A stretch of DNA of 64,000 nt from the NCBI GenBank assembly GCA_041908165.1, contig JAYRFV010000065.1, positions 11,954 through 75,953 on the forward strand, written 5' to 3'. The translations under genes and the position numbers were made by a program. Every line of letters starts with the position of its first letter. The first letter of the stretch is position 1. Below, one piece after another: positions 23,122-46,199 of this stretch. Under the pieces are notes generated by a model. That model was not told the DNA's origin. It saw only the letters and a list, made by a program, of their open reading frames with translations, and did not search any database. The DNA comes from Holophagales bacterium. GTDB lineage: Bacteria > Acidobacteriota > Holophagae > Holophagales > Holophagaceae.

Positions 23122-23346
23122 ATGAAGCTGACCGCACGCATCTCCAGCCTGCTCACCGCGCTCCTGGCCCTCGCCTGCTACGCCGGCGCCTACCGGAGCT
23201 TCCGGGCGATGGCGGCGGCCGCCGATCCCGCCCTCGCCCGGGACGCCCGGGGGTTCGGCTGGTTCGCGGTGTTCCTCGGCACGGTCTTCCTGGCGATCGC
23301 CGGGCTGTCCTGGTGGCTCCTCCGGGCGGAGTCCCCGGAGCCCTAG
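23122..23346 (+). CDS. Small two-TM membrane protein (74 aa)
   Basis: MKLTARISSLLTALLALACYAGAY...FGWFAVFLGTVFLAIAGLSWWLL. This is the in-frame tail of ORF 22768..23346. Confidence 0.45.
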   Translation: MKLTARISSLLTALLALACYAGAYRSFRAMAAAADPALARDARGFGWFAVFLGTVFLAIAGLSWWLLRAESPEP

Positions 23347-24368
23347 CCTGCCAACTCCGCCGCCGCGGCCTCGACACGACGGACCCAGGCCCTCCACGCC
23401 GGAGCATCGAAGCCATCGCCGGATGGACGGGGCAGGCCGCGCCGGAAGCGCAGCCCGGCCTGCAGGGACGCCTCCAGGTCGGCAGCCGGGAGCGCCCGCA
23501 GGGCGGCTGAGGCCTCGGCGAGGGCGGCAGGGCTCTGGCAGACCAGCAGGGCCAGATGCCCGGCGCCGATGGCCCGGCGCACCCGCTCCGGCCAGGGCCA
23601 GGCGTCCACCGCGCCCATCTCCAGGTCGTCGGTGACCCAGGCGGCCTCCACGCCCCACGGATTGCCGGCGGCGTGGCCCCGGTGCAGGCTGGCCGGCAGG
23701 CCGTCGCTCCAGGGCGTGCGCACGTGGGCGACCATCACCAGGCGGTCCGGCTTCGCCAGGGCACGGAAGGGTCCCAGCGCGCGCTCCACCACCGCCGGAT
23801 CCGTCAGTTCCGGCAGCGACTTGTGGCTGTCGACGCGGGTGCCGCCCAGCCCCGGGAAATGCTTGAGGCAGCCTTTCACGCCCTGCCCCTCCAGCCCGCG
23901 GAGGAAGGCGGCGGCGGCCTCCGCGGCCTCCTGCGGATCCTCCGCGGCGCGGCGTTCCCCGAGGCCGGTTCCCGGGATGCCGTCGTAGAGGTCCACGAGC
24001 GGGGCGAAGTCGATGTTGAACCCGAGCCGGCCCAGGCCCTCGCCCCACAGACGGCCCCAGGCCTCCGCGCCCGCGGCCCCGGAGGCCGTCCAGATGCGGC
24101 GGAAGGAGGGCGTCTCACCGACCCAGGCCTTGAGCCGGGACACCGGCCCGCCCTCCTGGTCGATGGCCACCGCCAGGGGCAGGTCACGGCCCCACCGGTC
24201 CTGCAGGTCGCGGATCAGCGCGTGGCAGCGCGCCGGCCCATGCTCCGGGTCGGGGTCGAGGTTCCGGGCGAACAGCACGACGCCCCCAGGTTCCGGATCC
24301 ATCGGAACGGGGGCGGCGTCCGGACCGGCGAGGCCCATCCAGATCGCGCTGCAGGGATTGACCGCCAT
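23343..24368 (-). CDS. nagZ: Beta-N-acetylhexosaminidase (GH3, NagZ-type)
   Basis: AIDQEGGPVSRL, KHFPGLGGTRVDSHKSLP motifs. No signal peptide. Start trimmed to the Met at 24368. Confidence 0.88.
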   Translation of the reverse strand: MAVNPCSAIWMGLAGPDAAPVPMDPEPGGVVLFARNLDPDPEHGPARCHALIRDLQDRWGRDLPLAVAIDQEGGPVSRLKAWVGETPSFRRIWTASGAAGAEAWGRLWGEGLGRLGFNIDFAPLVDLYDGIPGTGLGERRAAEDPQEAAEAAAAFLRGLEGQGVKGCLKHFPGLGGTRVDSHKSLPELTDPAVVERALGPFRALAKPDRLVMVAHVRTPWSDGLPASLHRGHAAGNPWGVEAAWVTDDLEMGAVDAWPWPERVRRAIGAGHLALLVCQSPAALAEASAALRALPAADLEASLQAGLRFRRGLPRPSGDGFDAPAWRAWVRRVEAAAAELAG

Positions 24369-24526
24369 GGAACCTCCTCGGGCCGCTGCGCCGGCCCCCG
24401 CAGCGTACAACAGTCGCCAGGGGCGCCGAACGCCGGTATCGTTTCCTCGATGGCCTCGGATCCTGCCCAGCCGCTCCGGAGCACCTCGCCTGGAGGCTCC
24501 ACCCGGGCCCCGCAACGGGGGTCCCG

Positions 24527-25546
24527 GTGACGCGGATGCTCGCCGAGACCCGCGAGGCCCCTGCCGCGGTGGCCCGGCTGCTGGAGGCCGACGCGGCCGA
24601 CTACGCCGCCCTCGGCACCTTCCTGCGCGCCAACCCTCCCTGCGGCATCCTGACGCTGGCCCGCGGCAGCTCCGATCACGCGGCCCAGCACACCGCCTAC
24701 CTCACGATGGCCCGGCTGGGCCGGCTGGTGACCTCCCTGCCCCCGTCCCTGGTGACGCTCTGCCACGCCGACCTGGCCCGCCCGGACCTGCTGGTGCTGG
24801 CGTTCTCCCAGTCCGGCCAGAGCCCGGACCTGGTGGACCCGCTGCGCTACTTCGGCGCCCGCGGCGCCACCACCGTCGCCCTGGTGAACGACCCCGGCTC
24901 GCCCCTGGCGCGGGAGGCCGGACGCGTGTTCGCCCTGCACGCCGGCGAGGAGCGCAGCGTGGCGGCCACCAAGTCCTTCATCGCCCAGCTGGTGGCGGGC
25001 CTGCGGCTGATCGAGGCCTGGCAGGGGGATGCGGGGCTGCAGGCCGGTCTCGCCGCGCTTCCCGATGCCCTGGCGCGCGCGGTCCGCGCCGACTGGTCCG
25101 CTGCCGTGGAGGCGCTCACGGACGTCGACCGCCTCTTCGTGCTCGGCCGCGGCGCCGGCCTCGCCATCGCCACGGAAGCGGCGCTGAAGCTGAAGGAGAC
25201 CTGCGGCATCCAGGCCGAACCCTTCTCCGGAGCCGAACTGCGCCACGGCCCCATGGCGATCGTCGAGGAGGGGTTCCCGCTGATCGTCTTCGCCCCGCGC
25301 GGGCCGGCCCAGGCCGGCCTCCTGTCCCTGGCCCGAGACCTCAGGGCCGCCGGCGCCCGGGTGCTGCTCGCCGCCCCCGGGGACATCCACGATGCGGACC
25401 TGCCGCTGGTGCCCGCCCCCCATCCCGACCTCGACACGGTGGCCGCGATCCAGAGCTTCTACCCGATGGCCGAGGCCCTATCCCGGGCCCGGGGCCACGA
25501 TCCGGACCACCCGCCGCGCCTGGCCAAGGTGACCCGCACCCTCTGA
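24527..25546 (+). CDS. Double-SIS domain sugar-phosphate isomerase/deaminase (GlmS isomerase-domain-like; NagB-II/AgaS-like)
   Basis: LTLARGSSDHAAQHTAYL, AFSQSGQSPDLV, VAATKSF, and a second SIS with LGRGAGLAIATEAALKLKE. Confidence 0.8.
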   Translation: MTRMLAETREAPAAVARLLEADAADYAALGTFLRANPPCGILTLARGSSDHAAQHTAYLTMARLGRLVTSLPPSLVTLCHADLARPDLLVLAFSQSGQSPDLVDPLRYFGARGATTVALVNDPGSPLAREAGRVFALHAGEERSVAATKSFIAQLVAGLRLIEAWQGDAGLQAGLAALPDALARAVRADWSAAVEALTDVDRLFVLGRGAGLAIATEAALKLKETCGIQAEPFSGAELRHGPMAIVEEGFPLIVFAPRGPAQAGLLSLARDLRAAGARVLLAAPGDIHDADLPLVPAPHPDLDTVAAIQSFYPMAEALSRARGHDPDHPPRLAKVTRTL

Positions 25547-25551: not shown

Positions 25552-26436
25552 ATGCTGCCCAACACCGAACGGCCCCACCCCGACCACCCGTTACTCGACT
25601 GCTACCCGGCCCAGGCGCTGGTGGAGGCGCTGGTGGACGACCAGGCCGGCGCGGCCCGTGCCGTGCGGGCCGCGGCGACCGTGCTCGCGGCGGCCGTGGA
25701 GGCCGCGGTGCCGCGCCTGCGCCTGGGCGGCCGGCTCATCTACGTGGGCGCCGGCACCTCGGGCCGGCTGGGCCTGCTCGACAGCGTCGAGCTGCACCCG
25801 ACCTTCTCCTGGCCCCGCGAGCAGGCCGTCGACCTGCTCGCCGGCGGCCCCGGCGCGGTGCATTCGGCGGTGGAAGGCGCCGAGGACGACCAGGAGCAGG
25901 GCGCGCGGGACCTGGCCCGGCTCCGGCCCGGCGCGAACGACGTGGTGCTGCTCCTGGCCGCCTCCGGCGCCACCCCGTACACCCTGGGCGCGCTGGCGGC
26001 GGCGAAGGAGGCCGGCGCCTGCACCGTCGGCTTCGCCAACAACCCGGAATCGCCGCTCGCCGCCGGGGCCGATTTCGGCGTCCTCCTGGACACCGGTCCG
26101 GAGGTGCTGTCCGGCAGCACGCGGCTGAAGGCCGGAACCGCCCAGAAGATCGCCCTGAACACCTTCTCGACCGCGGTGATGGTGCGGCTGCACAAGGTTT
26201 TCGGCAATCTCATGGTCGACGTCCGCCCCACCAACGCCAAGCTGGTGCGCCGCGCGGTCCGGCTGGTGGCCCTCGCCGCCGGGGTCGACGACCCGCGGGC
26301 GCAATCCGCCCTGGAGGCCTGCGGCGGCGAGGTGAAGCCCGCGATCGTCCACCTCGTGAAGGGTGTCGAGCCCGGACAGGCCCGGCTGCTCCTGGCGGCC
26401 GCGGAGGGCAGCGTCCGCGCCGCCCTGGAGGGCTGA
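25552..26436 (+). CDS. murQ: N-acetylmuramic acid 6-phosphate etherase
   Basis: GGRLIYVGAGTSGRLGLLDSVELHPTF...GSTRLKAGTAQKIALN...FGNLMVDVRPTNAKL. This is the last 294 aa of ORF 24013..26436. Confidence 0.92.
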   Translation: MLPNTERPHPDHPLLDCYPAQALVEALVDDQAGAARAVRAAATVLAAAVEAAVPRLRLGGRLIYVGAGTSGRLGLLDSVELHPTFSWPREQAVDLLAGGPGAVHSAVEGAEDDQEQGARDLARLRPGANDVVLLLAASGATPYTLGALAAAKEAGACTVGFANNPESPLAAGADFGVLLDTGPEVLSGSTRLKAGTAQKIALNTFSTAVMVRLHKVFGNLMVDVRPTNAKLVRRAVRLVALAAGVDDPRAQSALEACGGEVKPAIVHLVKGVEPGQARLLLAAAEGSVRAALEG

Positions 26437-26438: not shown

Positions 26439-27725
26439 GTGGAGGCCGCGGCCCGACCGGGTCCGCCCGCCAGCCCCTGGGCCTGGATCCCCACGCTCTA
26501 CTTCGGCCAGGGCCTGCCCTACGTCGTGGTCATGCTGCTCTCGGTCGTGTTCTACAAGAACCTCGGCGTGGCCAACACCGACATCGCCCTGTTCACCAGC
26601 TGGCTCTACCTGCCCTGGGTGATCAAGCCGCTGTGGTCCCCGGTGGTGGAACTGGTCGGCACCAAGCGTGCCTGGGTGGTGCTGCTGCAGGGCGGACTGG
26701 GCGTGGCCTTCGCCCTGCTGGCCCTGGCGGTGCCGGGCCGGTCGTTCTTCGTGCTCACCCTCGCCATGTTCTGGCTGATGGCCTTCGCCTCCGCCACCCA
26801 CGACATCGCCGCCGACGGCTTCTACCTCCTGGCGCTCAGCGAGCGTTCCCAGGCCGCCTTCGTCGGCCTGCGCAGCGCCTTCTACCGGGCCGCGATGATC
26901 GCCGGGCAGGGCGGCCTGGTGCTGGCGGCGGGCAAGCTCAGCGAGGCCACCGGCGACCCCCGCCGCGCCTGGCTGACCATCTTCCTGGGCCTGTCCGCCT
27001 TCTTCCTCCTGCTGGGCGGCTGGCACCGCTGGGCGCTGCCGCGGCCGGCGGCCGACCATCCGGGCGGCGCCGGCGCGGGACTGCTCGCCGGGTTCCTGGC
27101 CACCTTCCGCAGCTTCTTCGCCCGCCGCGACATCCTGCTGGTGCTCGGGTTCCTGCTCACCTTCCGGCTTGGCGAGGCGCAGGCCATCAAGCTGGTCGCG
27201 CCCTTCCTCCTGGATCCGGCGGCGAAGGGCGGCCTCGGGCTGAGCACCAGCCAGGTCGGCCTGGTCTACGGCACCATCGGCGTGGCCGCCCTGACCTGCG
27301 GCGGCATCGCCGGCGGCTACCTGATCTCCCGGATGGGGCTCAAGCGCTGGCTCTGGCCGATGACCTTCGCGGTCCATGTGCCCAACCTGGCCTTCGTCTA
27401 CCTGGCGGCCCTCCGCCCCGAGGGCCTGGCCACGGTGGCCACCGCCATCGCCATCGAGCAGTTCGGCTACGGCTTCGGCTTCACGGCCTACACCATGTTC
27501 CTGGTGATGATCGCCGACGGTCCCCACAAGACCGCACACTATGCCATCGGCACCGGCTTCATGGCCCTGGGCATGATGCTGCCGGGCATGGGCAGCGGCT
27601 GGATCCAGGAGCGGATCGGCTACTTGATGTTCTTCGTCTGGGTCTGCGCCTGCACCCTGCCGTCGATCATCCTCACGGCCTTCCTGCGCATCGACCCCGC
27701 CTTCGGCCGCCGGGGCGCGCCGTGA
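26439..27725 (+). CDS. ampG: AmpG-family muropeptide MFS permease
   Basis: PWAWIPTLYFGQGLPYVVVMLLSVVFYKNLGVANTDIALFTSWLYLPWVIKPLWSPVVE. Multi-TM, 428 aa. Confidence 0.85.
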   Translation: MEAAARPGPPASPWAWIPTLYFGQGLPYVVVMLLSVVFYKNLGVANTDIALFTSWLYLPWVIKPLWSPVVELVGTKRAWVVLLQGGLGVAFALLALAVPGRSFFVLTLAMFWLMAFASATHDIAADGFYLLALSERSQAAFVGLRSAFYRAAMIAGQGGLVLAAGKLSEATGDPRRAWLTIFLGLSAFFLLLGGWHRWALPRPAADHPGGAGAGLLAGFLATFRSFFARRDILLVLGFLLTFRLGEAQAIKLVAPFLLDPAAKGGLGLSTSQVGLVYGTIGVAALTCGGIAGGYLISRMGLKRWLWPMTFAVHVPNLAFVYLAALRPEGLATVATAIAIEQFGYGFGFTAYTMFLVMIADGPHKTAHYAIGTGFMALGMMLPGMGSGWIQERIGYLMFFVWVCACTLPSIILTAFLRIDPAFGRRGAP

Positions 27726-28855
27726 CCGGCGGCGGGCGGCTCGCCTCCCTGGACGCCTTCCGCGGCCTCGCCATCGCCAGCATGGTGCTGGTCAACAACC
27801 CGGGCAGCTGGAGCCACGTCCACGGCCCCCTGGCGCACGCCGCCTGGAACGGCTGCACCTTCACCGACCTGGTGTTCCCCTTCTTCCTGTTCGCCGCCGG
27901 GCTGGCGATGACGATCTCCCTCGGCCGCCGGGCCGGAACCGGGCGGGACCGCCCTGCCCTGTACCGCGGCCTGGCCCGCCGCGCCGCGGTGATCTTCCTC
28001 ATCGGCCTGGGCCTGAACCTGATCTCCTCCTTAAGCTTCGCGACCCTGCGGGTGCCCGGCGTGCTGCAGCGGATCGCCCTCGCCGTCGTCCTCGCCGCGC
28101 CGGTGGTGATCTGGGGACGCTGGCGGGTGGCCCTGGCCGCCATCGCGGCGCTCACCGCCGCCTGGCTCCTGCTCATGCTGGCGGTGCCGGTGCCCGGCGC
28201 CGACGGCGTCGTCGCCGCGGGCCGCCTCCAGCCGGGCATGGATTTCGGCGCCTGGCTGGACCGGACGGTCCTGCCCGGCCACCTCTGGGCCAGCGCCCGG
28301 ACCTGGGATCCGGAGGGCAGCGTCGGCACCCTCACCGCCACGGCCAGCCTGCTGTTCGGCGTCCTGGCCGGGCGCTACCTGGAAGCACCGCAGGGAGCGC
28401 TGCGCAAGTCCCCCGGCCTGCTGCTGGCCGGACTGGCGCTGCTCGGTCTGGGCGCCGGGCTGGCCCGGCTGGGGCTGCCGTTGAACAAGAGCTTGTGGAC
28501 ACCCTCCTACACCCTGTTCACCGCCGGCTGGTCGGCCCTGTTCCTGGCGCTCTTCCACGCCGCCCTCGACGAGGCGCCGGAAGCCTTCCGCACCGCCGCC
28601 CGCCGGGCCTGCCTGCCGTTGACCATCTACGGCATGAACGCCCTGTTCCTGTTCGTCCTCTCCGGGCTCGTCGGCCGGCTGCTCCAGGCCCTGCGGGTTT
28701 CCGGCCTGCCCCTCAAGCAGCGGCTGTTCGACGCCCTGGCGGCCCTGCCCCTGGCGCCCGAGAACGCCTCCCTGCTGTTCGCCGTGCTGTTCAACCTGGT
28801 CATGTTCGGGGTCGCCTGGTTCATGTGGAGGAAGCGGTGGTTCGTGAAGGTCTGA
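27722..28855 (+). CDS. Integral-membrane acyltransferase, heparan-alpha-glucosaminide N-acetyltransferase-like (DUF1624/DUF5009)
   Basis: RLASLDAFRGLAIASMVLVNNPGSWSHVHGPLAHAAWNGCTFTDLVFPFFLFAAG. GTG at 27722 overlaps the ampG stop (GTGA). Confidence 0.75.
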   Translation: MTGGGRLASLDAFRGLAIASMVLVNNPGSWSHVHGPLAHAAWNGCTFTDLVFPFFLFAAGLAMTISLGRRAGTGRDRPALYRGLARRAAVIFLIGLGLNLISSLSFATLRVPGVLQRIALAVVLAAPVVIWGRWRVALAAIAALTAAWLLLMLAVPVPGADGVVAAGRLQPGMDFGAWLDRTVLPGHLWASARTWDPEGSVGTLTATASLLFGVLAGRYLEAPQGALRKSPGLLLAGLALLGLGAGLARLGLPLNKSLWTPSYTLFTAGWSALFLALFHAALDEAPEAFRTAARRACLPLTIYGMNALFLFVLSGLVGRLLQALRVSGLPLKQRLFDALAALPLAPENASLLFAVLFNLVMFGVAWFMWRKRWFVKV

Positions 28856-30369
28856 CCCGCCTGGGCGGGCTCCTCCTCCTGGGCTGGATCGCCCTCGCGG
28901 CCGGCTGCGCGCCGCAGCGCCCGGTCCAGGCCGCCCCGGTCGTCGCGATGCCCCCGCCCCCGGCGCCGCGGGAGTTCCGCGCCGCCTGGGTGGCCACGGT
29001 GGCCCACATCGACTGGCCCAGCGCCCGCGGTCTCTCCGTCGAGGCCCAGCAGGCCGAGGCGCGCGAGATCGTCGCCCGCGCCCGCGACCTCGGCCTCAAC
29101 GCCCTGATCTTCCAGGTCCGCCCCGCCGCCGACGCCCTGTACGCGTCGCCCCTGGAACCCTGGTCCGAGTACCTCACCGGCGAGCAGGGCAAGGCCCCGG
29201 CGAGCCCCTTCGATCCGCTCGGCTTCTGGATCGAGGAGGCCCACCGCGCCGGTCTTGAACTGCATGCCTGGTTCAACCCCTTCCGGGTGCGCCATCCCTC
29301 CGCCCGGTCGCCGCAGGCGCCCGGCCAGGTGGCGTCCACCCGCCCGGACCTGGTCCGCAGCTACGGCGACCAGCTCTGGCTGGACCCGGGCGAGCCCTGG
29401 GCGGTGGAGCACGTGCTGGCCGTGGTCCGGGACCTGGTGCGCCGCTACGACCTCGACGGCGTCCACTACGACGACTACTTCTACCCCTACCCCATCCTGG
29501 ATGCCGGCGGGCAGAAGGTCGATTTCCCCGACGACCGCGCCTGGCAGGCCTACCTGGACGGGGGCGGCAGCCTGCCCCGCGCCGACTGGCGGCGGCGGCA
29601 GGTGGACGGCTTCGTCGAGCGGCTGTACCGGGAAGTCCACCAGGAGAAGCCGCACGTGCGGGTCGGCGTGAGCCCCTTCGGCGTCGGCCGCCCGGACCGC
29701 CGGCCGCCGGGGGTGGTGGGCTTCAGCCAGTACGACGACCTCTACGCCAACGTCGAGCTCTGGCTGGAGCAGGGCTGGCTGGACTACCTGGCGCCGCAGC
29801 TGTACTGGAAGCTGGATTCCCCGGGGCAGCCCTTCGCGCCCCTCCTGGACACCTGGCTGGCGCAGAACCCCCTCAAGCGGCATATCTGGCCCGGGCTGTT
29901 CACCAGCCGGATGGGGCCGGACGGCCAGTGGCCGGCGGCCGAGCTCCTCGGCCAGATCCGGACCCTCCGCAGCCGCCCCGGCAGCGCCGGGCACGCGCAC
30001 TTCAGCGAAGTCGCCCTGCGCAAGGACTTCGGGGGCATCCGTGCCGCCCTCTCCCAGGCCTACGCCGGACCGGCCCTGGTGCCGGCCACGCCCTGGCTGG
30101 GTGGTGCACCGCCACCCGCGCCGGCGGTCCGACTGAAACCGGCGGAATCCGGCCGCGTCGGCCTCGAAGTGGGTTCCGAGGACCGCCCCTGGATCCTGGC
30201 GGTCTGGGGCCGCTACGGGGATCGCTGGCGGTTCTTCACCCTGCCCGGCGGGACGGGCACCCTCCCGGCGCAGGTGGACGGCGCGGACCTCGGCCCCGTG
30301 GTCGTCTCGGCGGTGGGACGCACGGGCCTCGAGAGCCCCAGGGTCGCCGCCCAGGAAGCACCGCGCTGA
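28825..30369 (+). CDS. GHL10/DUF187 (YngK-like) glycoside hydrolase-like lipoprotein (start +/- 30 nt)
   Basis: Lipobox LAAGC, then REFRAAWVATVAHIDWPS...LNALIFQVRPAADALY...HAWFNPFR. Confidence 0.75.
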   Translation: MEEAVVREGLTRLGGLLLLGWIALAAGCAPQRPVQAAPVVAMPPPPAPREFRAAWVATVAHIDWPSARGLSVEAQQAEAREIVARARDLGLNALIFQVRPAADALYASPLEPWSEYLTGEQGKAPASPFDPLGFWIEEAHRAGLELHAWFNPFRVRHPSARSPQAPGQVASTRPDLVRSYGDQLWLDPGEPWAVEHVLAVVRDLVRRYDLDGVHYDDYFYPYPILDAGGQKVDFPDDRAWQAYLDGGGSLPRADWRRRQVDGFVERLYREVHQEKPHVRVGVSPFGVGRPDRRPPGVVGFSQYDDLYANVELWLEQGWLDYLAPQLYWKLDSPGQPFAPLLDTWLAQNPLKRHIWPGLFTSRMGPDGQWPAAELLGQIRTLRSRPGSAGHAHFSEVALRKDFGGIRAALSQAYAGPALVPATPWLGGAPPPAPAVRLKPAESGRVGLEVGSEDRPWILAVWGRYGDRWRFFTLPGGTGTLPAQVDGADLGPVVVSAVGRTGLESPRVAAQEAPR

Positions 30370-30376: not shown

Positions 30377-31297
30377 GTGGATCCCCGCCCCGCCCCGCCG
30401 CCCCTCGCCCTCGGAATCGACGCCGGCGGCACGGCCACCCGCTGGGCCCTCGCCGGCCCTTCGGCGACGATCCTGGCCGAGGGCGAGGTTCCCGGGTTCA
30501 GCGCCCTGGAGTTGCAGGGCCCCGGGCGCGAGCGGATCCGGGCCCTGCTCCAGGACCTGGCCGCGGCGGCCGGCACCCACGGCCGGCCGGGGCGCGCCCA
30601 CGCCGGCCTGACCGGGCTCGGAGCGGTCGACAGCGACCTGCCCGACTGGTTCGCCGGGGCCCTCGGGCTGCCCGCGGGGACGGTCACCCTGGGGGGCGAC
30701 CTGGAAACCACCTACCGGGACCTGTTCGCTCCCGGGGAGGGCTACGTGGTCTACGCCGGCACCGGGTCCGTGGCGGTCTTCATCGACGCGGAGGGCGCCC
30801 TCCACCGTGCCGGAGGCCGCGGCAACCTCCTCGACGACGGAGGCGGCGGGTTCTGGATCGCCCGGGAGGCCCTGCGCAGGGTCTGGCGCGCCGAGGACGA
30901 GCGGCCGGGCAGCTGGGAGTCCTCTCCCCTGGCCCGGGCCCTGTTCGACCAGATGGGGGGCGCCGACTGGGACTGCACCCGCCGGATCGTGTACGGCGGC
31001 GGCCGGGGGGAAGTGGGCCGCCTCGCCCTGGCGGTGGCACGGGCCGCCGCCGAGGACCCCGCCGCGCTGGGGAGCCTGCAGGCCGCGGGCGCGGAGCTGG
31101 CCCGGCTCGCCCAAGCCCTGGTGGGCCGCTACGGGCCGCGTCCGGTGGCGCTCACCGGGCGCGCCGCCGGCCTGCACCCCGCGATCGAGACGAACCTGAA
31201 GGCCGCCCTGCCCGCCGGGCTCCCCTTCAGCCACCGCCCGAGCCGCGGCCACCACGCCGCCGCCCGCCTCGCCCTGCGTGCCGGAGCCCAGCCATGA
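30377..31297 (+). CDS. BadF/BadG/BcrA/BcrD-type sugar kinase (GlcNAc/MurNAc kinase-like)
   Basis: LALGIDAGGTATRWAL, VVYAGTGSVAV, GGRGNLLDDGGGGFWIAREAL. Confidence 0.8.
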   Translation: MDPRPAPPPLALGIDAGGTATRWALAGPSATILAEGEVPGFSALELQGPGRERIRALLQDLAAAAGTHGRPGRAHAGLTGLGAVDSDLPDWFAGALGLPAGTVTLGGDLETTYRDLFAPGEGYVVYAGTGSVAVFIDAEGALHRAGGRGNLLDDGGGGFWIAREALRRVWRAEDERPGSWESSPLARALFDQMGGADWDCTRRIVYGGGRGEVGRLALAVARAAAEDPAALGSLQAAGAELARLAQALVGRYGPRPVALTGRAAGLHPAIETNLKAALPAGLPFSHRPSRGHHAAARLALRAGAQP

Positions 31298-40290: not shown

Positions 40291-41420
40291 TCGCAGATCC
40301 TCCGGACGCGCCGGTGCAGGGCGCAGGTGACCTCGTAGGTGATGGTGCCCAGCAGCCGCGCCGTGCCCTCCACCGAGTTCGGCGGGCCAGGATCACGGCT
40401 CAGCAGCACCATGCGATCGCCGGGGTGGACCGGGACCTCCGGCGGCAGGGCCACGGTCATGGAGTCCATGGAGATCATGCCCACCACCGGATACAGGGCG
40501 CCGTGGAAGCCCGCCACGGCGCGGCCGGCCAGGGCCCGGGGGAACCCGTCGGCGTAGCCGCAGGCCAGGGTGGCGATCTGCACCGGCGCCGAGGCGACGA
40601 AGCGCCCGCCGTAGCCCACCGGGGTCCCGGCCGGCACCCGCACGGCGCGGAACACTTCCGCCTCCAGCTGCAGGATCGGCCGCAGCCCGGCGGCCTCGGC
40701 CCGGTCCGCCAGCCCGTACAGGGCGATGCCGGGCCGGACGTGGGTGTCGCCCTCGGTGAAGCCGCGCAGGCAGGCGGCGCTGTTGGCGTGGTGGACCTGC
40801 GGCGGCGCGAGGCCGGCATCGGCGAGCTGGGCCCGGGCTTCCAGGAACCGGCGCCGCTGCTCCTGCGACACCGAAGGGTCGGCATCGTCGGCCGAGGAGA
40901 AGTGGCCCATCAAGCCCCGCAGCCAGGGCCGGACGGTGCGCAGCAGGTCCAGGCAGGCTCCGAGTTCGGGCAGCAGCAGGCCGGACCGCCCCATGCCCGT
41001 GTCGAGCTTCAGCTGCAGGTCCACCGGGTGCCGGGGAAGCAGGTCGGCCAGGTCCCGCAGGTGGTCCGCCGAGACGACGGTGAGGTCCAGGTGGTGCGCG
41101 GAGGCCACCGGCAGGTCCTCGCCGGACAGGCCGCCGAACACCAGGATCCGGCCGCCGATCCCGGCCGCGCGGAGTTCCAGGGCCTCGGCCAGGGTCGCCA
41201 CGCAGAAGCCCGCGACGCCGGCCTCCGCCAGGGCCCGGGCCACCGGGACGGCCCCGTGGCCGTAGGCATCGGCCTTCACCACCGCCAGGAGGCCGAGCCC
41301 GCCCGCCGCCCGCCGCAGCGCGGAGAGGTTGTCCACCAGGCGGCCGAGGTCGATCCGGGCGACGGGCGCCCGGCCGGCCTGAACCGCGTCCGCGGCGGGG
41401 ATCGAACCGTTCGGAACCAT
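40287..41420 (-). CDS. alr: Alanine racemase
   Basis: LAVVKADAYGHGAVPVARAL (PLP Lys motif). 377 aa. No signal peptide. ATGA overlap with the downstream gene. Confidence 0.92.
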   Translation of the reverse strand: MVPNGSIPAADAVQAGRAPVARIDLGRLVDNLSALRRAAGGLGLLAVVKADAYGHGAVPVARALAEAGVAGFCVATLAEALELRAAGIGGRILVFGGLSGEDLPVASAHHLDLTVVSADHLRDLADLLPRHPVDLQLKLDTGMGRSGLLLPELGACLDLLRTVRPWLRGLMGHFSSADDADPSVSQEQRRRFLEARAQLADAGLAPPQVHHANSAACLRGFTEGDTHVRPGIALYGLADRAEAAGLRPILQLEAEVFRAVRVPAGTPVGYGGRFVASAPVQIATLACGYADGFPRALAGRAVAGFHGALYPVVGMISMDSMTVALPPEVPVHPGDRMVLLSRDPGPPNSVEGTARLLGTITYEVTCALHRRVRRICE

Positions 41421-41569
41421 GGGGCCAGCGTAGCGGAGAATGGAACCCGCCGAGGGGCGATCCTCGGCGCCCCGGGGGATTTCGGCTCCGGCCTGCCGCG
41501 GCGGTGGCCGCGGGTGGGACCATCTGCGACCATGGTCAACGGTTCACCTGTCGATGAAGGGGTCCCCGC

Positions 41570-42463
41570 ATGAGAACCGCCGTCCTGCGCGCCGTCCTGC
41601 TGGGGATCCAGTTGCTGGCCGGCGTCCGCCCGCTCCACGGGGCCGAGGCGCCCGCCCACGTGGTGGTGCAGGCGGTGGTGAACCTGCATGCCAAGCCCAG
41701 CGCCGAGGCCGAGGTGGTCAGCCAGGCCCTGCTCGGCGCCCGGCTGCTGGAACTGGAGCGCGACGGCGGCTGGGCCCGGATCAAGGCCGAGGACGACTAC
41801 CTGGGCTGGGTTCCGCTGTCCGCCCTGCGTACCCTGGAGGGCGCCGAGCGCTACCCGGCCTCGCTGGAAGCCGGCAAGGTGGTCGAGGTCGACGCCCTGG
41901 CCGCCAACATCTTCGCCGAACCCACCGTCACCCGGCGGGCCCCGCTGCTGACCGCGCCCTTCGGCGTGCGCCTGGAACGCGACCCCAGCCCCAAGGACGG
42001 CAAGCGCTGGCTGCAGATCCGTCTGCCCGACCGCCGCAGCGCCTGGATCCAGTCCGGGGACGTCCGCACCGACCTCCGGCCGCTTAGCCTGGATGCCTCC
42101 CTGCTGCTGGCCCGGCGCTTCCTGGGGGTCAACTACACCTGGGGCGGCACCTCCAGCTTCGGCTTCGACTGCTCCGGCTTCACCCAGACCATCGTCCGCA
42201 GCCGCGGCGTGCTGATGCCCCGCGATGCACGCGTCCAGGCGGCCTGGTCCGGCCTGGCCGAAGTGGCCGACCGCGCCGACCTGCGGCCGGGCGACCTGCT
42301 GTTCTTCCGCGAGACCTCGCCGGCCATCTCCCACACGGGGATCTACCTGGGCGAGGGCCGGTTCATCCACGACAGCACCAGCCAGCGCCCCTGCGTGCAG
42401 ATCTCCGAGCTGTCGGAGCCCGGCTGGTCCAAGTCCCTGGTGGCGATGAGGAGGCTCAAATGA
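41570..42463 (+). CDS. Exported SH3b + NlpC/P60 gamma-D-glutamyl-(L-Lys/mDAP) endopeptidase (YkfC-like)
   Basis: Signal MRTAVLRAVLLGIQLLAG. Two SH3b-like segments. YTWGGTSSFGFDCSGF (catalytic Cys) and ISHTGIYLGEGRFIH. Confidence 0.85.
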   Translation: MRTAVLRAVLLGIQLLAGVRPLHGAEAPAHVVVQAVVNLHAKPSAEAEVVSQALLGARLLELERDGGWARIKAEDDYLGWVPLSALRTLEGAERYPASLEAGKVVEVDALAANIFAEPTVTRRAPLLTAPFGVRLERDPSPKDGKRWLQIRLPDRRSAWIQSGDVRTDLRPLSLDASLLLARRFLGVNYTWGGTSSFGFDCSGFTQTIVRSRGVLMPRDARVQAAWSGLAEVADRADLRPGDLLFFRETSPAISHTGIYLGEGRFIHDSTSQRPCVQISELSEPGWSKSLVAMRRLK

Positions 42464-43587
42464 ACCGACGGGAAGCCCTCCAGGCCCTGGCCGCGGGCAG
42501 TGTGGGCGGTTCCCTGCTGGGCCGCGCGGGACGGTCGGCGGACACCCCCGGTGCCCCGCCCCCGGTCGCGTTCAGCACGCGCATCCGCCGGCTGGAGCTG
42601 CGCCACGCCTGGACCACCACGATGTCCACCAGCGCCCACCGGGACACCCTCCACGCCGAGTACACCCGGGACGGGATCACCGGCTACGGCGAAGGCGCCG
42701 GCATCGTCCGCTACAGGCAGAACGCCGCCGACGGCCAGCGTGCGCTGGAGCCCCTGAAACCGCTGCTGCTGGCCGCGGACCCGTGGAAGCTGGAGAGGCT
42801 CTGGGCCGAACTCGACCGCCGCCTGCCGGGCCAGCGCGCCGCCCTGGCGGCGGTGGAACTGGCGCTGATGGACTGGCGCTGCAAGAAGCTGGGGATCCCG
42901 CTGTACCGGTTCTTCGGCCTGGACCCCGCCGACGCCGCGGTCACCACCATGTCGATCGGCATCGACACGCCGGAGCTGACCCGGCAGAAGGTCCGCGAGG
43001 CCGAAGCCTTCCCGTTCCTCAAGATCAAGGTCGGGCTGGCCTCCGACGAGGCGACCCTCGACGCCGTCCGCAGCGTCACCCGCAAGCCGCTGCGGGTGGA
43101 CGCCAACGAGGGCTGGACCTCCAAGGAGGAGGCGGTCCGCAAGATCAACTGGCTGGAGAGCCAGGGCGTGCAGTTCATCGAGCAGCCCATGCCCGCGGCC
43201 ATGATCGACGAAGCGCGCTGGGTGCGCAGCCGCGTGCACATCCCCATTTTCGCCGACGAGGCCTGCCATTCGGCGGAGGACATCCCCAGGCTGCGCGAGG
43301 CCTTCGACGGCATCGTCGTCAAGCTCGACAAGTGCGGCGGCCTGCTGGAGGCCCACCGCCAGATCACCGTGGCCAAGGCGCTCGGCATGAAGACCATGAT
43401 CGGCTGCATGGTGTCCAGCTCCTGCACGGTCACCGCGGCCGCCCACCTGACGCCGCTGGTGGACTATGCCGACCTGGACGGCCATCTGCTCATCGCCAAC
43501 GATCCCTACGCCGGGGTCGGCGTGGAGCGCGGCAAGCTGATCCTGCCCGGCGCCCCGGGACTCGGCGTCCGACTGCTCAAGCCCTGA
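42460..43587 (+). CDS. L-Ala-D/L-Glu (dipeptide) epimerase, enolase superfamily, with Tat-like N-terminus
   Basis: MNRREALQALAAGSVGGSLLG, then enolase-superfamily core: FLKIKVG, LRVDANEGW, FIEQP, FADEAC, VVKLDKCGG. Overlaps the upstream gene by 4 nt, as in the ykfB/ykfC pairing. Confidence 0.8.
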   Translation: MNRREALQALAAGSVGGSLLGRAGRSADTPGAPPPVAFSTRIRRLELRHAWTTTMSTSAHRDTLHAEYTRDGITGYGEGAGIVRYRQNAADGQRALEPLKPLLLAADPWKLERLWAELDRRLPGQRAALAAVELALMDWRCKKLGIPLYRFFGLDPADAAVTTMSIGIDTPELTRQKVREAEAFPFLKIKVGLASDEATLDAVRSVTRKPLRVDANEGWTSKEEAVRKINWLESQGVQFIEQPMPAAMIDEARWVRSRVHIPIFADEACHSAEDIPRLREAFDGIVVKLDKCGGLLEAHRQITVAKALGMKTMIGCMVSSSCTVTAAAHLTPLVDYADLDGHLLIANDPYAGVGVERGKLILPGAPGLGVRLLKP

Positions 43588-43601: not shown

Positions 43602-44744
43602 ATGAACCCGATGCGCCGCCGCTCCTTCCTCCGCCGCCTGCTCCTCGGGCTGCTGCTGGTCGCCCTGCCCCTCCCGCTCCAGGCCCAGGAGCGGTTCCTG
43701 GACGCCCCCAGGCCGGCGAAGGACGGCCCCCGCCTGGTGGTGTTCAATCCCACGGTCTACAACATCCGCTGCCTGGCGGCCCTGCGCCGGCTGGCGATCC
43801 TGGACGTCCCGGGGCTGACCGTGATCGGCGTCTACCACGTCCGCCAGCGGGAGGACTTCGCCGCCGCCGAGCGGCACGCCCGCGACGCCCGGCTGGACTG
43901 GTTCCGCTTCCACGCGGTCTCGGCTCCGGTGGGGGAGGCCGACCTCTGGCGCGCCAACGCCTGCACCCCGGAATTCCAGGCGGTCGTGCAGAAGGCCGAC
44001 GGAGCCATCTTCTTCGGCGGTCCCGACATCCCTTCCGGGATCTTCGGCCAGAAGACCCACCTGCTGGCGAACATCGAGGACCCCGTACGCCACCACCTCG
44101 AACTGTCCGCCCTCTTCCACCTGCTCGGCGGCGCCCAGGATCCGGCCCGCACGCCCCTCCTGGCGGACCGACCGGCCTTTCCGGTCCTGGGCATCTGCCT
44201 GGGCTTCCAGAGCCTCAACGTCGCCACCGGCGGCACCCTCGTCCAGGACATCCCCACCGGGATCTACGGCCTGTCCTACGTCGAGGACATCCTCGCCCAG
44301 GACCCCGAGCAGTGGCACGCCAATCCGCACCGGCGGCTGCACCCCCTGGACAGGCTGATGCCGCAGAGCTACCACTCCCTGAACCTGGGTCCACAGGGAC
44401 GGATCTTCCCGGCCCTGGGCTTCGGCGCAGGCGACCACCCGCGGGTGCTCAGTTCGCACCACCAGGCCCTGGGCGCCCTCGGCCAGGGCTGGTTCGCCAC
44501 CGCCACGTCCCGCGACGGCAGGGTGATCGAGGCGATCGAGCACCGCCGCTTCCCGAACGTGCTGGGCGTGCAGTTCCACCCCGAGCATCTCCAGCTGTGG
44601 GATGCCTCGGCTCCGGTCCGGCAGCGGCCTGGCGAGGCCCCGACCAGCCACCCCGCCCTCCTCGCCGGCGCCCCCCGCAGCCTGGAGTTCAACCAGGCGA
44701 TCTGGAAATGGCTGGGTGCCCGACTGCGCGAGGCCCGGAAGTAG
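43602..44744 (+). CDS. Peptidase C26 / class-I glutamine amidotransferase-like gamma-glutamyl hydrolase with signal and ~130 aa N-terminal extension
   Basis: MNPMRRRSFLRRLLLGLLLVALPLPLQAQE. VLGICLGFQSLN (Cys), SSHHQAL, GVQFHPE (His). Confidence 0.78.
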   Translation: MNPMRRRSFLRRLLLGLLLVALPLPLQAQERFLDAPRPAKDGPRLVVFNPTVYNIRCLAALRRLAILDVPGLTVIGVYHVRQREDFAAAERHARDARLDWFRFHAVSAPVGEADLWRANACTPEFQAVVQKADGAIFFGGPDIPSGIFGQKTHLLANIEDPVRHHLELSALFHLLGGAQDPARTPLLADRPAFPVLGICLGFQSLNVATGGTLVQDIPTGIYGLSYVEDILAQDPEQWHANPHRRLHPLDRLMPQSYHSLNLGPQGRIFPALGFGAGDHPRVLSSHHQALGALGQGWFATATSRDGRVIEAIEHRRFPNVLGVQFHPEHLQLWDASAPVRQRPGEAPTSHPALLAGAPRSLEFNQAIWKWLGARLREARK

Positions 44745-44768
44745 CCGGAGCGGCCGGCCCGCTCAGGA

Positions 44769-46199
44769 TCAGCGCCGGCCCTCGAGGGCCTTCCAGACGG
44801 TGGGCAGGGCCTGCACCAGGGCACGGGAGGAAGCCGGCAGGGTCCTCGGGGTGAGCGGCACCGCGCTGGTGTCTTCGACCTGCAGGTTGCCCGGGGCGCG
44901 GCCCAGGCGGTAGCCGTTGTCGAGGCCGCCATCGCCGCCCAGGCGGATCCCGGGTGAGGCCGGATTGGCCACGGTCAGGTAGAAGCCCGCCACCGCCGGG
45001 GGACGACGGACGGCCTTGGACCTGCGCAGGCGGCGCGAGGCCAGCTCCTTGAAAAGGCTGCGGGCGGCGTGCTCGGCCGGGTTCACCAGGACGACCTCCT
45101 CGGCCACCCGGTCCGCGAAGGGCCGCCCACCCTCCTTCGCCTGGAAGCTCCGGGTCTGGCGGAAGGCGTCCTGCAGGTCCGCGCCCACCAGCGGGAAGTG
45201 GGTGCAGCCGAGCACCACCAGCTTGAGCGGCGGCGCCTTCGGATGGCTGGCCTGGAAGCCGCTGACCAGCCCGGCCACGTCGAAGCGCACGTAGTCCGCC
45301 ACGGCGTTGAGGGTGCCCGCCAGCAGCCGGGCCCGGTCCAGGCCGCCGAGCTGGGCCAGGTCGGCGCTGACCTCCGGGCCCTGGTAGGGCACCGGCCTAA
45401 TGGCGGCGGGGGTGACGAAGGCCGGGTTGCCCTCGATCGCCCCGGCCAGGCCGACGCTGCCCTGCTGGACCACGACCGGCCTCCCCTTGCCGGCCCGCTC
45501 CGCCGCCGCGGCGATGGCCGCAGGGTAGGCCCCCGAGGCGCAGGTGCCGACCGTGGCCATCACCCCCACCGAGGGCACCGGCCCCAGGGCGGGCAGCAGT
45601 TCCGCCACCGCCTCGGCGCCGGCGTCCACCACCCCGATCACCGGGATGTCCAGGCCCCAGTCCTTCAGCGCCGCGCGGATGTCGGCCAGGCCGTAGGCGG
45701 TGGCGGTGTTGCAGGCGATCACGATGGCCTTCACCGGTGGCTTGTCGAAGCGCGGCGCCGCCGAGGCGGCGGACCGGTAGCGGCGCCCCAGCAGGAACAC
45801 CACGTCCTTCAGGATCAGTTCCCGCAACAGGTCGGTCTTCCCGACCGACGGGTAGTTGCCGTAGGGCATGTTGGCCTGGTCCCCCAGGTAGATGAAGCGC
45901 TCCCCGGCGAGGTCCGGAACCCCGTCCGGCTTCGGAGCCAGGGTCCGGTTGTCCACCGCGTCCACCGTCAGCAGCGCCTCCAGCACCGTCAGCCCGCCGA
46001 TACCCGAATCGAACACCCCGATCGGCAGGTCCCGGTGCGGCCCGCGCCGCAGGGCCACCAGGTCAGCCGTATGCACCAGCCGGCCCGAAGGGTGCGCCGC
46101 GACCCGGGCCTTGAGGGGCCCGAGGGGGTCCTGGGCCAGGGCGGGCAGCAGCAGGCAGGCGGCGAGGAAGCATCGGGGGATGTGGGTTGCCAGGCGCAT
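44769..46199 (-). CDS. Glutamate racemase-like protein, atypically long (476 aa) with signal peptide, insertion and C-terminal extension
   Basis: MRLATHIPRCFLAACLLLPALAQD. IGVFDSGIGGLTVLEAL, IVIACNTATAYG, LVVLGCTHFPLVG (both catalytic Cys motifs). Confidence 0.8.
   Translation of the reverse strand: MRLATHIPRCFLAACLLLPALAQDPLGPLKARVAAHPSGRLVHTADLVALRRGPHRDLPIGVFDSGIGGLTVLEALLTVDAVDNRTLAPKPDGVPDLAGERFIYLGDQANMPYGNYPSVGKTDLLRELILKDVVFLLGRRYRSAASAAPRFDKPPVKAIVIACNTATAYGLADIRAALKDWGLDIPVIGVVDAGAEAVAELLPALGPVPSVGVMATVGTCASGAYPAAIAAAAERAGKGRPVVVQQGSVGLAGAIEGNPAFVTPAAIRPVPYQGPEVSADLAQLGGLDRARLLAGTLNAVADYVRFDVAGLVSGFQASHPKAPPLKLVVLGCTHFPLVGADLQDAFRQTRSFQAKEGGRPFADRVAEEVVLVNPAEHAARSLFKELASRRLRRSKAVRRPPAVAGFYLTVANPASPGIRLGGDGGLDNGYRLGRAPGNLQVEDTSAVPLTPRTLPASSRALVQALPTVWKALEGRR

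Follow-up and report, generated by a model that had tools for sequence, protein, structure and literature searches.

We analyzed a 64,000-nucleotide stretch of the genome of a Holophagales bacterium (phylum Acidobacteriota; GenBank assembly GCA_041908165.1, contig JAYRFV010000065.1, positions 11,954 to 75,953 of the forward strand), referred to below as the window. Between window positions 23343 and 46199 it carries 18 consecutive genes (g1 to g18) with probable roles in the breakdown of peptidoglycan (PG). Judged by protein families, structure models and gene neighborhoods, this locus is likely to be a conserved acidobacterial system, of a type found in Holophagae, for the use of PG fragments as nutrients. 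The locus is real, conserved and apparently undescribed, and it combines PG recycling and scavenging genes with a utilization locus built around a TonB-dependent transporter (TBDT). Its unexpected element is a set of racemase, epimerase and decarboxylase steps that are predicted to take place in the periplasm. A sequence-only reading that preceded this work had not recognized a described system here, and this still stands: no description of such a locus was found in the searchable full-text literature, which omits most subscription journals.

The G+C content of the window is approximately 72%, because of which raw lists of open reading frames (ORFs) are rich in artefacts. The gene set was defined by scoring ORFs by third-position G+C (GC3). 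Exactly 18 genes were obtained between the stop of the NagZ gene (23343) and the start of the MurI-like gene (46199), the same number as in the sequence-only reading. Families were assigned by hidden Markov model (HMM) searches with Pfam and NCBIfam, together with PDB matches and with Foldseek searches on AlphaFold2 (AF2) models for selected proteins. None of the families that had been named for the 18 genes was reassigned by these searches; MurQ, LysA and Alr score above NCBIfam equivalog cut-offs, and the other genes match at the family level.

Co-conservation in relatives

All 18 proteins were compared against a receptor-anchored sample of 80 acidobacterial loci. The synteny check proposed in the sequence-only reading gave a positive answer: the genes are conserved together, though rearranged in places, in loci L084 and L014 of two uncultured relatives and in cultured Geothrix and Mesoterricola, and they recur in further architectures. 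In L084, whose receptor is 69% identical to that of the window, the same genes occur in the same order, the C26 match being only partial and lying in a 112-aa ORF; this locus also has NagA next to NagB-II. In L014 (receptor 58% identical), 14 of the 18 genes are located within 10 kb of the receptor, and the C26 and MurI-like genes have moved.

Geothrix sp. 21YS21S-2 and Mesoterricola silvestris have AmpG-NagX-GHL10-kinase-amidase first, then, encoded on the other strand, C26-epimerase-P60 with a class-A beta-lactamase-like gene, after that VanX(-YkuD)-LysA-amidase, and finally GNAT and a fusion of NamZ and beta-lactamase that bears a signal. In these two organisms, the stem-peptide and glycan modules are contiguous. 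The other end of the arrangement, NagB-II...kinase adjoining NagZ-SSF-receptor, is found in G. oryzisoli and other Holophagaceae. Two further loci contain different combinations. In L092, the operon receptor-kinase-MurQ-amidohydrolase precedes a NagX-like gene, an amidase_2 fusion, an epimerase with a Tat signal and a P60 fusion. In L091, LysA bears a signal and LdcA a Tat signal, and both occur together with a NamZ fusion, an epimerase, NagB-II, the receptor, the kinase and MurQ. The clustering is not due to chance, because relatives keep these genes together even where their order has changed, and the system is a family-wide trait of Holophagae rather than a peculiarity of this genome.

Some additional genes were observed in the related clusters. 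In L084, a ParE toxin and a TraY/DUF6290 antitoxin (13490-13961) are inserted between the receptor and the amidase gene; they are absent from the window. A class-A beta-lactamase-like domain (PF13354) recurs in L085 (7623-8531), L087 (8228-9136) and L092 (18749-20365 and 21540-22913). It stands alone between P60 and VanX in Geothrix/Mesoterricola, is fused to Amidase_2 and to SH3-NlpC/P60 in L092, and may bind or cleave D-Ala-D-Ala. Signal-bearing fusions of 752-804 aa that join a serine beta-lactamase/penicillin-binding-protein-like domain (PF00144) to the exo-muramidase domains of NamZ were found in L085 (12531-14789), L087 (12537-14795) and L091 (11458-13872), where they adjoin signal-bearing LysA or amidase. 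Moreover, L091 encodes an S66-family LdcA (8852-9940) with a twin-arginine-like N-terminus (MGSMLNRRGFLGQ...), which suggests a periplasmic LdcA in another acidobacterial lineage.

Import components

The product of g9 (32135..35068, minus strand) is a TBDT-like outer-membrane protein with a signal peptide and an N-terminal CarboxypepD_reg domain (Pfam CarboxypepD_reg and OMP_b-brl_4, the latter at 1.7e-16). With the start at 35068, it comprises 977 aa and is identical to database protein P0001. By its homologues, the receptor places the organism in Acidobacteriota, close to Holophagae. Searches from sequence alone yielded neither a plug domain nor a PDB relative among TBDTs, and a structure model and a scan of orthologues were used instead. 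In the AF2 model, the barrel is confident, with a predicted local distance difference test (pLDDT) score of 70-90, and all of the 50 Foldseek matches listed are TBDTs (FusA at 3e-20, YddB at 4e-17, FpvA and Fiu among them); as modeled, g9 fits the TBDT fold, which is a 22-stranded beta-barrel. The Plug HMM (PF07715) matched 9 of 20 g9 orthologues, with a best E-value of 1.2e-4. A TonB box was not identifiable in g9.

The neighborhood of the receptor links it to PG. The distance from the receptor homologue to a murQ gene is at most 10 kb in 25 of the 80 loci, and in 15 of the 37 whose flanks extend for at least 8 kb each way; by our own estimate, the chance proximity of a single-copy gene in an approximately 5-Mb genome is about 0.5%. 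In 16 of the 25 murQ-linked loci, murQ is on the receptor strand and close by, either 147-488 nt upstream or approximately 1.1 kb downstream (all within 1.2 kb). It is murQ, and not a chitin gene, that is the most constant neighbor of the receptor. In a neighbor-joining tree, the murQ-linked receptors fall into coherent clades, mainly from loci labeled as Holophagae and Thermoanaerobaculia, whereas a large sister clade, much of it of Vicinamibacteria type, shows no murQ link. The link between receptor and PG is therefore a property of a receptor sub-family. Both the modeled fold and this linkage uphold the earlier view of a TonB-dependent receptor as the import component.

Adjacent to the receptor, g10 (35241..36725, minus strand) encodes a permease of the sodium:solute symporter family (SSF; Pfam SSF 6e-40, TIGR00813) and is a candidate MurT-like importer of N-acetylmuramic acid (MurNAc). 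Its orthologue likewise adjoins the receptor in L084, in L014 and in Holophagaceae loci (78-84% identity). A homologue with 39-42% identity is located within 10 kb of the receptor in nine more distant loci, four of which are of the murQ-linked Thermoanaerobaculia type.

Stem-peptide enzymes and their predicted export

Export was called by reading N-termini with all in-frame starts marked. Ten proteins bear export signals (g6, g8, g9, g11-g13 and g15-g18): g6, g8 and g11 have a lipobox, g9, g12, g13, g15 and g18 have a Sec-type signal, g17 has a signal of either Sec or Tat type, and g16 has a twin-arginine signal (MNRREALQ...) whose RR is kept in L084, L014, L085 and L092. Polytopic membrane proteins are encoded by g4, g5 and g10, and no signal is present in g1, g2, g3, g7 and g14. 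For g6, g8, g11, g12, g13 and g15-g18, the signals are kept in orthologues from L084, L014, Geothrix sp. 21YS21S-2 and others. What is kept is the n-region, the h-region and the AXA site, lipobox Cys or RR, while the residues drift; since features are conserved while signal residues diverge, the signals look genuine. Consequently, the earlier statement that the stem-peptide set is largely exported applies to the decarboxylase, the MurI-like protein, the epimerase, the C26 hydrolase, the VanX-YkuD fusion and the P60 protein, but not to alanine racemase, which is without a signal.

The VanX-YkuD fusion g13 (38878..40290, minus strand) is a predicted exported protein that combines a VanX-type D-Ala-D-Ala dipeptidase (Peptidase_M15 2e-29) with a YkuD-fold domain, whose Pfam E-value of 0.006 is below the gathering score. 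Its best NCBIfam match is PRK10178, a DdpX/VanX-type D-Ala-D-Ala dipeptidase, and alignment to 1r44 shows that the VanX zinc and catalytic motifs are intact. The AF2 model (pLDDT 82.8) has its strongest Foldseek match to VanX (E 1.4e-14) and also matches the YkuD-fold L,D-carboxypeptidases Bd1075 and Csd6 (probability 1.0, E 3e-3 to 8e-3, with low TM scores); the latter matches would belong to the C-terminal domain. Furthermore, His411 and Cys423 (in a Gly-Cys pair) are invariant in 27 homologues, several orthologues carry YkuD PF03734, and M. silvestris has a stand-alone homologue of the C-terminal domain, annotated as an 'L,D-transpeptidase family' gene. Thus, g13 is probably an L,D-carboxypeptidase fused to a D-Ala-D-Ala dipeptidase, and the half that had been called an L,D-transpeptidase looks most like YkuD-fold L,D-carboxypeptidases. 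Such a fusion would be sensible if D-Ala-D-Ala is set free from pentapeptides by the carboxypeptidase.

Next to it, g14 (40287..41420, minus strand) encodes an alanine racemase (TIGR00492 275 bits vs a cut-off of 168) that is predicted to be cytoplasmic. The gene is present only in the window and L084 clusters and is absent from the Geothrix and Mesoterricola clusters.

Three genes on the plus strand follow. The first, g15 (41570..42463), encodes a predicted exported SH3b-NlpC/P60 protein (Pfam NLPC_P60 and SH3_16) of the YkfC/dipeptidyl-peptidase VI type, a gamma-D-Glu-diamino-acid endopeptidase, with best PDB matches to 3h41 (B. cereus YkfC), 3npf and 3pvq, which include Bacteroides dipeptidyl-peptidase VI. 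The second, g16 (42460..43587), encodes the epimerase with the twin-arginine signal, an enolase-superfamily L-Ala-D/L-Glu dipeptide epimerase (Pfam MR_MLE_C/N) with PDB matches to 3iji (6e-79), to the dipeptide epimerase 3jva and to the L-Ala-D/L-Glu epimerases 1jpm and 1jpd. As a pair, g15 and g16 resemble ykfC-ykfB. The third, g17 (43602..44744), encodes a predicted exported hydrolase of the C26/class-I glutamine-amidotransferase fold (Peptidase_C26 3e-26); its PDB matches are distant (3fij and 7d4r), and the motifs GICLG (nucleophile elbow) and FHPE (His-Glu) are present. The order P60-epimerase-C26 is retained in Geothrix and Mesoterricola.

The last gene, g18 (44769..46199, minus strand), encodes a glutamate-racemase-like protein of 476 aa with partial matches to Asp_Glu_race and TIGR00067. 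Typical MurI proteins have about 260-290 aa, are cytoplasmic and carry two catalytic Cys residues (in CNTA and GCTH motifs). Only the N-terminal half of g18 matches MurI HMMs, with scores well under the cut-offs, and its two catalytic Cys motifs, IACNTAT and GCTHFPL, both align to PDB MurI. By these features, together with its predicted signal, g18 is assigned to a distinct long exported sub-family. At E<=1e-30 this MurI-like family has 135 representative clusters, a number that rises to 362 at E<=1e-10, and a signal peptide or lipobox was found in 21 of the 25 representatives that have at least 35 residues ahead of the DSGxGG motif. As a further observation, the family (proteins P0361-P0510) is widespread, and its members have about 450-530 aa, some being fused into proteins of 800-1000 aa. 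To our knowledge, it is uncharacterized.

The diaminopimelate decarboxylase

The LysA protein encoded by g12 (37491..38858, minus strand) scores 455 bits against TIGR01048, whose cut-off is 298. The motifs ALKAN, HIGSQ, GGGIG, EPGR, CETGD and AGAYG are present and the pyridoxal phosphate (PLP) active site is intact, and we take the protein to be a bona fide diaminopimelate decarboxylase. Its predicted Sec-type signal is part of the protein, because the stretch from the hydrophobic segment to the conserved PLYVYD core offers no other start. In every Holophagae orthologue, including those of Geothrix and Mesoterricola, a basic n-region can be recognized at the N-terminus together with a hydrophobic h-region and an AXA-like site, and it is predicted that g12, unlike biosynthetic LysA, is not in the cytoplasm.

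The g12 clade was found inside PG clusters of three architectures. Signal-less canonical LysA proteins that are 35-38% identical to g12 exist in related classes (L023, L051 and L057), because of which the g12 clade looks like a separate paralogue. Among the divergent LysA-like genes near the receptor in Thermoanaerobaculia, these are the three with intact N-termini, and they were used for this comparison alone. A member of the g12 clade (66% identity) with a clear signal peptide was also observed in a metagenome-assembled genome of Candidatus Riflebacteria (L088/L089, 10001-11443), where its neighbors are RF3 and a sigma factor. Exported LysA may accordingly reach beyond PG clusters and Acidobacteriota, since this member occupies an unrelated neighborhood.

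Glycan-side enzymes and amidases

Candidates for the first cuts in the glycan and its peptides are lipoproteins. The GHL10 lipoprotein g6 (28825..30369, plus strand; Pfam GHL10 1.6e-57) has the lipobox LAAGC, which is kept in L084, L014 and L085, and it matches Cwp19 of C. difficile (PDB 5oq2) with an E-value of 1.2e-65 over residues 49-399 (approximately 350 residues). Because it is a close homologue of Cwp19, a demonstrated PG lytic transglycosylase (PMC6016235), g6 is a strong candidate for glycan-strand cleavage. Two AmiD-like MurNAc-L-Ala amidases are predicted: g8 (31294..32085, plus strand), with Amidase_2 (7e-26) and PG_binding_1 (4e-8) domains and a conserved lipobox ALGC, and g11 (36751..37494, minus strand), with Amidase_2 (8e-34) and a conserved lipobox LAAC.

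Fragments that reach the inner membrane would meet g4 (26439..27725, plus strand), an AmpG-family MFS muropeptide permease (Pfam MFS_1; TIGR00901 176 bits, under the cut-off of 350), and g5 (27722..28855, plus strand), an HGSNAT/NagX-like transmembrane acetyltransferase (Pfam HGSNAT_cat 3e-13; NagX_SO_3504 152 bits, under the cut-off of 480), whose synteny extends to distant loci. Besides Alr, four genes encode predicted cytoplasmic enzymes. A NagZ-type beta-N-acetylglucosaminidase of glycoside hydrolase family 3 is encoded by g1 (23343..24368, minus strand; Pfam Glyco_hydro_3 1e-33, NCBIfam PRK05337 8e-31); judged by GC3 and the N-terminus, its start is more likely at 24368 (MAVNP...) than at 24515, and the gene is syntenic in Holophagaceae loci L018, L019 and L021 and annotated in L084. 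The double-SIS glucosamine-6-phosphate deaminase g2 (24527..25546, plus strand; Pfam SIS twice) is of the NagB-II type, scoring 251 bits against NagB_SO3506, under its cut-off of 430, and has syntenic orthologues with 72-77% identity. MurQ, the MurNAc-6-phosphate etherase, is encoded by g3 (25552..26436, plus strand; NCBIfam NF003915 359 bits vs a cut-off of 168). Finally, g7 (30377..31297, plus strand) encodes a BadF/BcrAD-type amino-sugar kinase (Pfam BcrAD_BadFG), which is MurK/NagK-like: the probable N-acetylglucosamine (GlcNAc) kinase 1zc6 and the MurNAc/GlcNAc kinase 8zo3 are about equally good PDB matches.

Proposed pathway

Outside the cytoplasmic membrane, the lytic transglycosylase lipoprotein g6 and the amidase lipoproteins g8 and g11 would cut glycan strands and strip off stem peptides, and the TBDT g9 may carry MurNAc-containing fragments into the periplasm. 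There, the YkuD-fold domain of g13 would take the C-terminal D-Ala or D-Ala-D-Ala off the diamino acid and its VanX domain would split D-Ala-D-Ala. The YkfC-like P60 protein g15 would then cut between gamma-D-Glu and meso-diaminopimelate (mDAP), the Tat-exported epimerase g16 would convert L-Ala-D-Glu to L-Ala-L-Glu, and the C26 protein g17 would probably hydrolyze the remaining dipeptide or a gamma-glutamyl bond. The MurI-like racemase g18 and the signal-bearing LysA g12 would convert D-Glu to L-Glu and mDAP to L-lysine, and ordinary L-amino-acid transporters could take up the products of the stem peptide. At the inner membrane, AmpG (g4) would carry disaccharides and the MurT-like SSF protein g10 possibly MurNAc, and the NagX-like g5 may re-acetylate de-N-acetylated sugars. 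In the cytoplasm, NagZ (g1), the BadF-type kinase (g7), MurQ (g3) and NagB-II (g2), together with a NagA from elsewhere, would lead to fructose-6-phosphate, and Alr (g14) would handle D-Ala.

A stronger version of this proposal can be put forward only tentatively, at slightly less than even chances: Holophagae and related Acidobacteriota would possess a dedicated 'eat your neighbours' wall' system, with the first outer-membrane importers specific for muropeptides or PG fragments (the sub-family of TBDTs with CarboxypepD_reg) and with the stem peptide converted completely to L-amino acids in the periplasm. If true, PG catabolism would have a new compartmentalization, as the decarboxylase, MurI-type racemase and epimerase are normally cytoplasmic, and necromass would be turned over in soils, sediments and sludge by a molecular route of this kind.

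PG is a large and nitrogen-rich pool of necromass, and both its consumers and its crossing of the outer membrane in Gram-negative bacteria are poorly understood. The locus offers a candidate family of muropeptide-specific TBDTs, and its gene set could be used as a metagenome marker of PG scavenging by Acidobacteriota. It also brings unexpected enzymology, all of it predicted, in the exported diaminopimelate decarboxylase, the long exported MurI-like family with hundreds of members, and the fusion of VanX with an L,D-carboxypeptidase. A Cwp19-type lytic transglycosylase candidate within a nutrient system of Gram-negative bacteria is likewise unexpected. The hypothesis is directly testable, because these genes also occur in strains of Geothrix and Mesoterricola that are in culture.

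Weighing the explanations

Several observations weigh against a role in nutrition. Export was predicted from N-termini alone, without SignalP, TatP or LipoP. The Plug HMM gave no match in g9 itself, and the region that reads plug-like (residues 108-233) was modeled at a pLDDT of <50. In addition, 44 of the 80 receptor-family loci show none of the cluster genes nearby, the matches do not fix the substrate specificity of the g7 kinase, the g10 symporter, the g17 C26 hydrolase or the NagX-like g5, and neither a regulator within the locus nor an operator in common among its promoters was found. NagA, which is needed between MurQ and NagB-II, is not in the window, and AnmK, which would be required if g6 generates anhydro-MurNAc ends, was not detected among the 18 genes; both would therefore have to be supplied from elsewhere. 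For this reason, the earlier suggestion that every PG residue could be converted to central metabolites needs additional genes from outside the block.

The locus could also recycle the PG turnover of the cell itself, in which case the periplasmic enzymes would trim fragments released by growth and the receptor would recapture leakage or be unrelated. AmpG, NagZ, amidase_2 and MurQ are canonical recycling genes, and AmiD-like periplasmic amidases and L,D-carboxypeptidases (E. coli AmiD, Csd6, Bd1075) also act on the products of own turnover. The Xanthomonas TBDT NixC has been tied only indirectly to self-derived fragments (PMC4173781). We regard this explanation as unlikely, as NagB-II, LysA, the racemases and an epimerase that yields L-amino acids point to catabolism, no Mpl, MurU/AmgK or other re-use enzyme was detected in the block by Pfam and NCBIfam, and the receptor sits within a stem-peptide operon and belongs to a sub-family tied to murQ across classes. 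Moreover, material that is already in the periplasm needs no energized import across the outer membrane. Recycling and scavenging are, however, not mutually exclusive. The doubts about g12 lead to a different explanation, in which part of the block is housekeeping beside a recycling operon, LysA being biosynthetic, Alr supplying D-Ala and the N-terminal hydrophobic stretches being non-functional. LysA could indeed be a housekeeping enzyme, because it is the most conserved protein of the set in Holophagae (82-89% identity vs 55-84% for the others) and passes the biosynthetic lysA equivalog model; Alr also scores above its biosynthetic cut-off and is without a signal peptide, and the Thermoanaerobaculia members of the g12 clade are without a signal as well. 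The persistence of the signal features in every Holophagae orthologue of a drifting sequence, the single possible start ahead of the conserved core, the presence of the clade in PG clusters of three different architectures and the separate canonical LysA of related classes make this explanation distinctly improbable. An alpha-aminoadipate lysine pathway upstream was considered and rejected: the genes suspected of it, at 8928-13612, proved to be leuA/B/C/D beside ilv genes, and no such pathway was found in the window.

It is hardly credible that the locus serves chitin or GlcNAc utilization of the Shewanella/Xanthomonas N-acetylglucosamine (NAG) type, with a TBDT, NagX, NagB-II and NagK, and that the PG genes are merely adjacent. 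In NCBIfam, g2, g5 and g7 are matched best by the Shewanella models for NagB-II, NagX and NagK, and GlcNAc loci that depend on a TBDT have precedents in Caulobacter and Xanthomonas, but the scores are far under the cut-offs (251 vs 430, 152 vs 480 and 45 vs 370, respectively), and NagP, NagA, chitinases and GH18/GH20 enzymes are not in the block. Specificity for PG is a feature of MurQ, of the two MurNAc-L-Ala amidases, of the Cwp19-like lytic transglycosylase and of seven stem-peptide enzymes, and the constancy of murQ beside the receptor has no counterpart in a chitin gene. A system for the nutritional use of PG fragments, which may be of foreign origin, is thus the reading that we prefer.

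Locus layout and genomic surroundings

The locus spans approximately 23 kb and apparently consists of five transcription units: g1 (minus strand), g2-g8 (plus), g14-g9 (minus), g15-g17 (plus) and g18 (minus). Within g2-g8, spacing ranges from gaps of at most 7 nt to 4-nt overlaps, and g5 and g6 overlap by 31 nt; within g14-g9, there are 4-nt overlaps, 19-25-nt gaps and one 172-nt gap ahead of g9. A putative bidirectional intrinsic terminator, a G+C-rich hairpin between A and T runs, is located between the convergent genes g8 and g9 (32090..32117). The overlaps, the short gaps and this terminator fit an organization in operons. Promoters are presumed, from the gene coordinates, in the divergent intergenic stretch that separates g1 from the g2-g8 operon (24369..24526). 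The divergent region between the g14-g9 and g15-g17 operons (41421..41569) holds a palindrome, GACCATGGTC, which was not found in the other promoter regions of the locus.

No helix-turn-helix, DNA-binding or regulator domain was detected among the 18 proteins with Pfam and NCBIfam, which confirms the earlier remark that the locus encodes no regulator. A palindrome search of four promoter regions and a comparison of intergenic DNA with L084, together a test of low power, revealed no shared operator; the intergenic DNA of the two loci has diverged too far to allow footprinting. In an Rfam scan with relaxed settings over positions 22500-47500, no riboswitch or regulatory RNA was seen in the locus, and the only match was a tRNA-Met outside it.

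The flanks are unrelated to the locus. On the upstream side, they encode two adjacent hybrid histidine kinases, which immediately precede the locus, together with an acyltransferase and a dienelactone hydrolase. The kinases (18827-23156) have 1062 aa (TarH-like/PAS/HisKA/HATPase/REC) and 377 aa (REC-HisKA-HATPase) and are reminiscent of the hybrid two-component control in the Tannerella operon discussed below; as regulators of the locus they were rejected, being without a DNA-binding domain and not syntenic in other loci. Downstream are the tRNA-Met, GT4 and DivIVA genes and a trp operon. The tRNA-Met (CAT; 47285-47361, minus strand) is approximately 1.1 kb past g18, and a 99-aa ORF with no family matches (46389-46688) lies between them. 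More widely, 268-17327 and 48858-61694 contain ordinary housekeeping genes, namely TamB, ilvE, ilvC, ilvN, ilvB, leuD, leuC, leuB, leuA, a LysR regulator, a beta-eliminating lyase with an AsnC regulator, DivIVA, the genes trpA, B, F, C, D, G and E, and a monomeric isocitrate dehydrogenase.

The receptor-SSF segment (32000-36000) has a G+C content of 65-67% vs 72-76% in its neighbors. Horizontal acquisition of this segment was considered and rejected, as GC3 is at its native level of 0.94 in the receptor ORF and 0.89 in the SSF-containing ORF. Since the drop sits in codon positions 1-2, the dip reflects amino-acid composition and not recent transfer.

Comparison with known systems

Known murein-peptide catabolism includes ykfABCD of B. 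subtilis and mpaA-ycjG/pepD and ddpX of E. coli. The window shares with these systems a YkfC-type P60 protein paired with an L-Ala-D/L-Glu epimerase, an L,D-carboxypeptidase step and a DdpX/VanX-type dipeptidase. In contrast to them, its epimerase, endopeptidase, dipeptidase and carboxypeptidase bear export signals, its carboxypeptidase is of the YkuD fold and fused to VanX instead of belonging to S66, and it has LysA, a MurI-like racemase and a C26 hydrolase in addition. The known systems are also without an outer-membrane transporter and without racemase or decarboxylase steps in the periplasm.

Gram-negative PG recycling, as in E. coli and Pseudomonas, proceeds through AmpG-NagZ-AmpD-LdcA-AnmK-MurQ-NagA-NagB. 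AmpG, NagZ, an amidase_2 enzyme and MurQ are present in the window as well, but its amidases are AmiD-like lipoproteins and not a cytoplasmic AmpD, and AnmK, LdcA (S66), Mpl and NagA were not found in the window block. A TonB-type receptor and, by prediction, periplasmic enzymes that convert amino acids are additional to the recycling set.

A precedent for Sec-exported PLP enzymes of fold type III is provided by the periplasmic broad-spectrum racemases, namely Bsr/BsrV and the Alr of Pseudomonas putida. LysA shares their fold class, and Pfam Ala_racemase_N also matches g12; however, Bsr enzymes make non-canonical D-amino acids for wall remodeling, unlike the role proposed for g12. We know of no described exported diaminopimelate decarboxylase or exported MurI-type racemase.

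TBDTs also occur in carbohydrate utilization loci containing TBDTs (CUT loci). In the Xanthomonas GlcNAc system Nix/Nag, the TBDT NixC has been tentatively linked to the import of PG breakdown products (PMC4173781), and Caulobacter NagA TBDT represents TBDT-containing GlcNAc utilization (PMC13046382). The window resembles such loci in having an outer-membrane TBDT with an inner-membrane transporter and degradative enzymes, in conserved synteny. By contrast, the substrates of those CUT loci are GlcNAc, chitooligosaccharides or N-glycans, and their regulators are of the GntR/LacI type, whereas no regulator was found inside the acidobacterial locus; none of them holds MurQ together with a set of genes for stem-peptide catabolism. 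No muropeptide is named among the TBDT substrates in a 2024 review. No SusD-family protein was found among the 18 genes or the flanks, and the locus is therefore not a polysaccharide utilization locus of the Bacteroidota type. Its earlier description as a locus of that general kind applies loosely, in that it is a TBDT-containing utilization locus, and does not extend to a SusD partner or a regulator.

The closest characterized system is the AmpG-NamZ-MurT-MurK-MurQ operon of Tannerella forsythia (Tanf_08345-08385), which encodes AmpG, YbbC/NamZ, MurT, MurK and MurQ, has the regulator GppX and takes up exogenous muropeptides and MurNAc (PMC5388701, PMC7670621, PMC5790795). The AmpG, sodium-symporter-type transporter, BadF-family kinase and MurQ families are all in the window, and MurK belongs to the same BadF-type Pfam family as g7 (PMC5790795); the likeness of g10 to MurT and of g7 to MurK is one of family membership. 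NamZ is not in the window and is present as fusions in L085, L087 and L091. The regulator of the T. forsythia operon is a hybrid two-component protein with an AraC helix-turn-helix, and the window is without an AraC-type hybrid regulator. Unlike the window, the operon includes neither a TonB-dependent receptor nor stem-peptide catabolic genes. Furthermore, it is mainly anabolic and rescues a MurNAc auxotroph, whereas the acidobacterial locus, with its receptor and its predicted periplasmic stem-peptide enzymes, is read here as a nutrient system.

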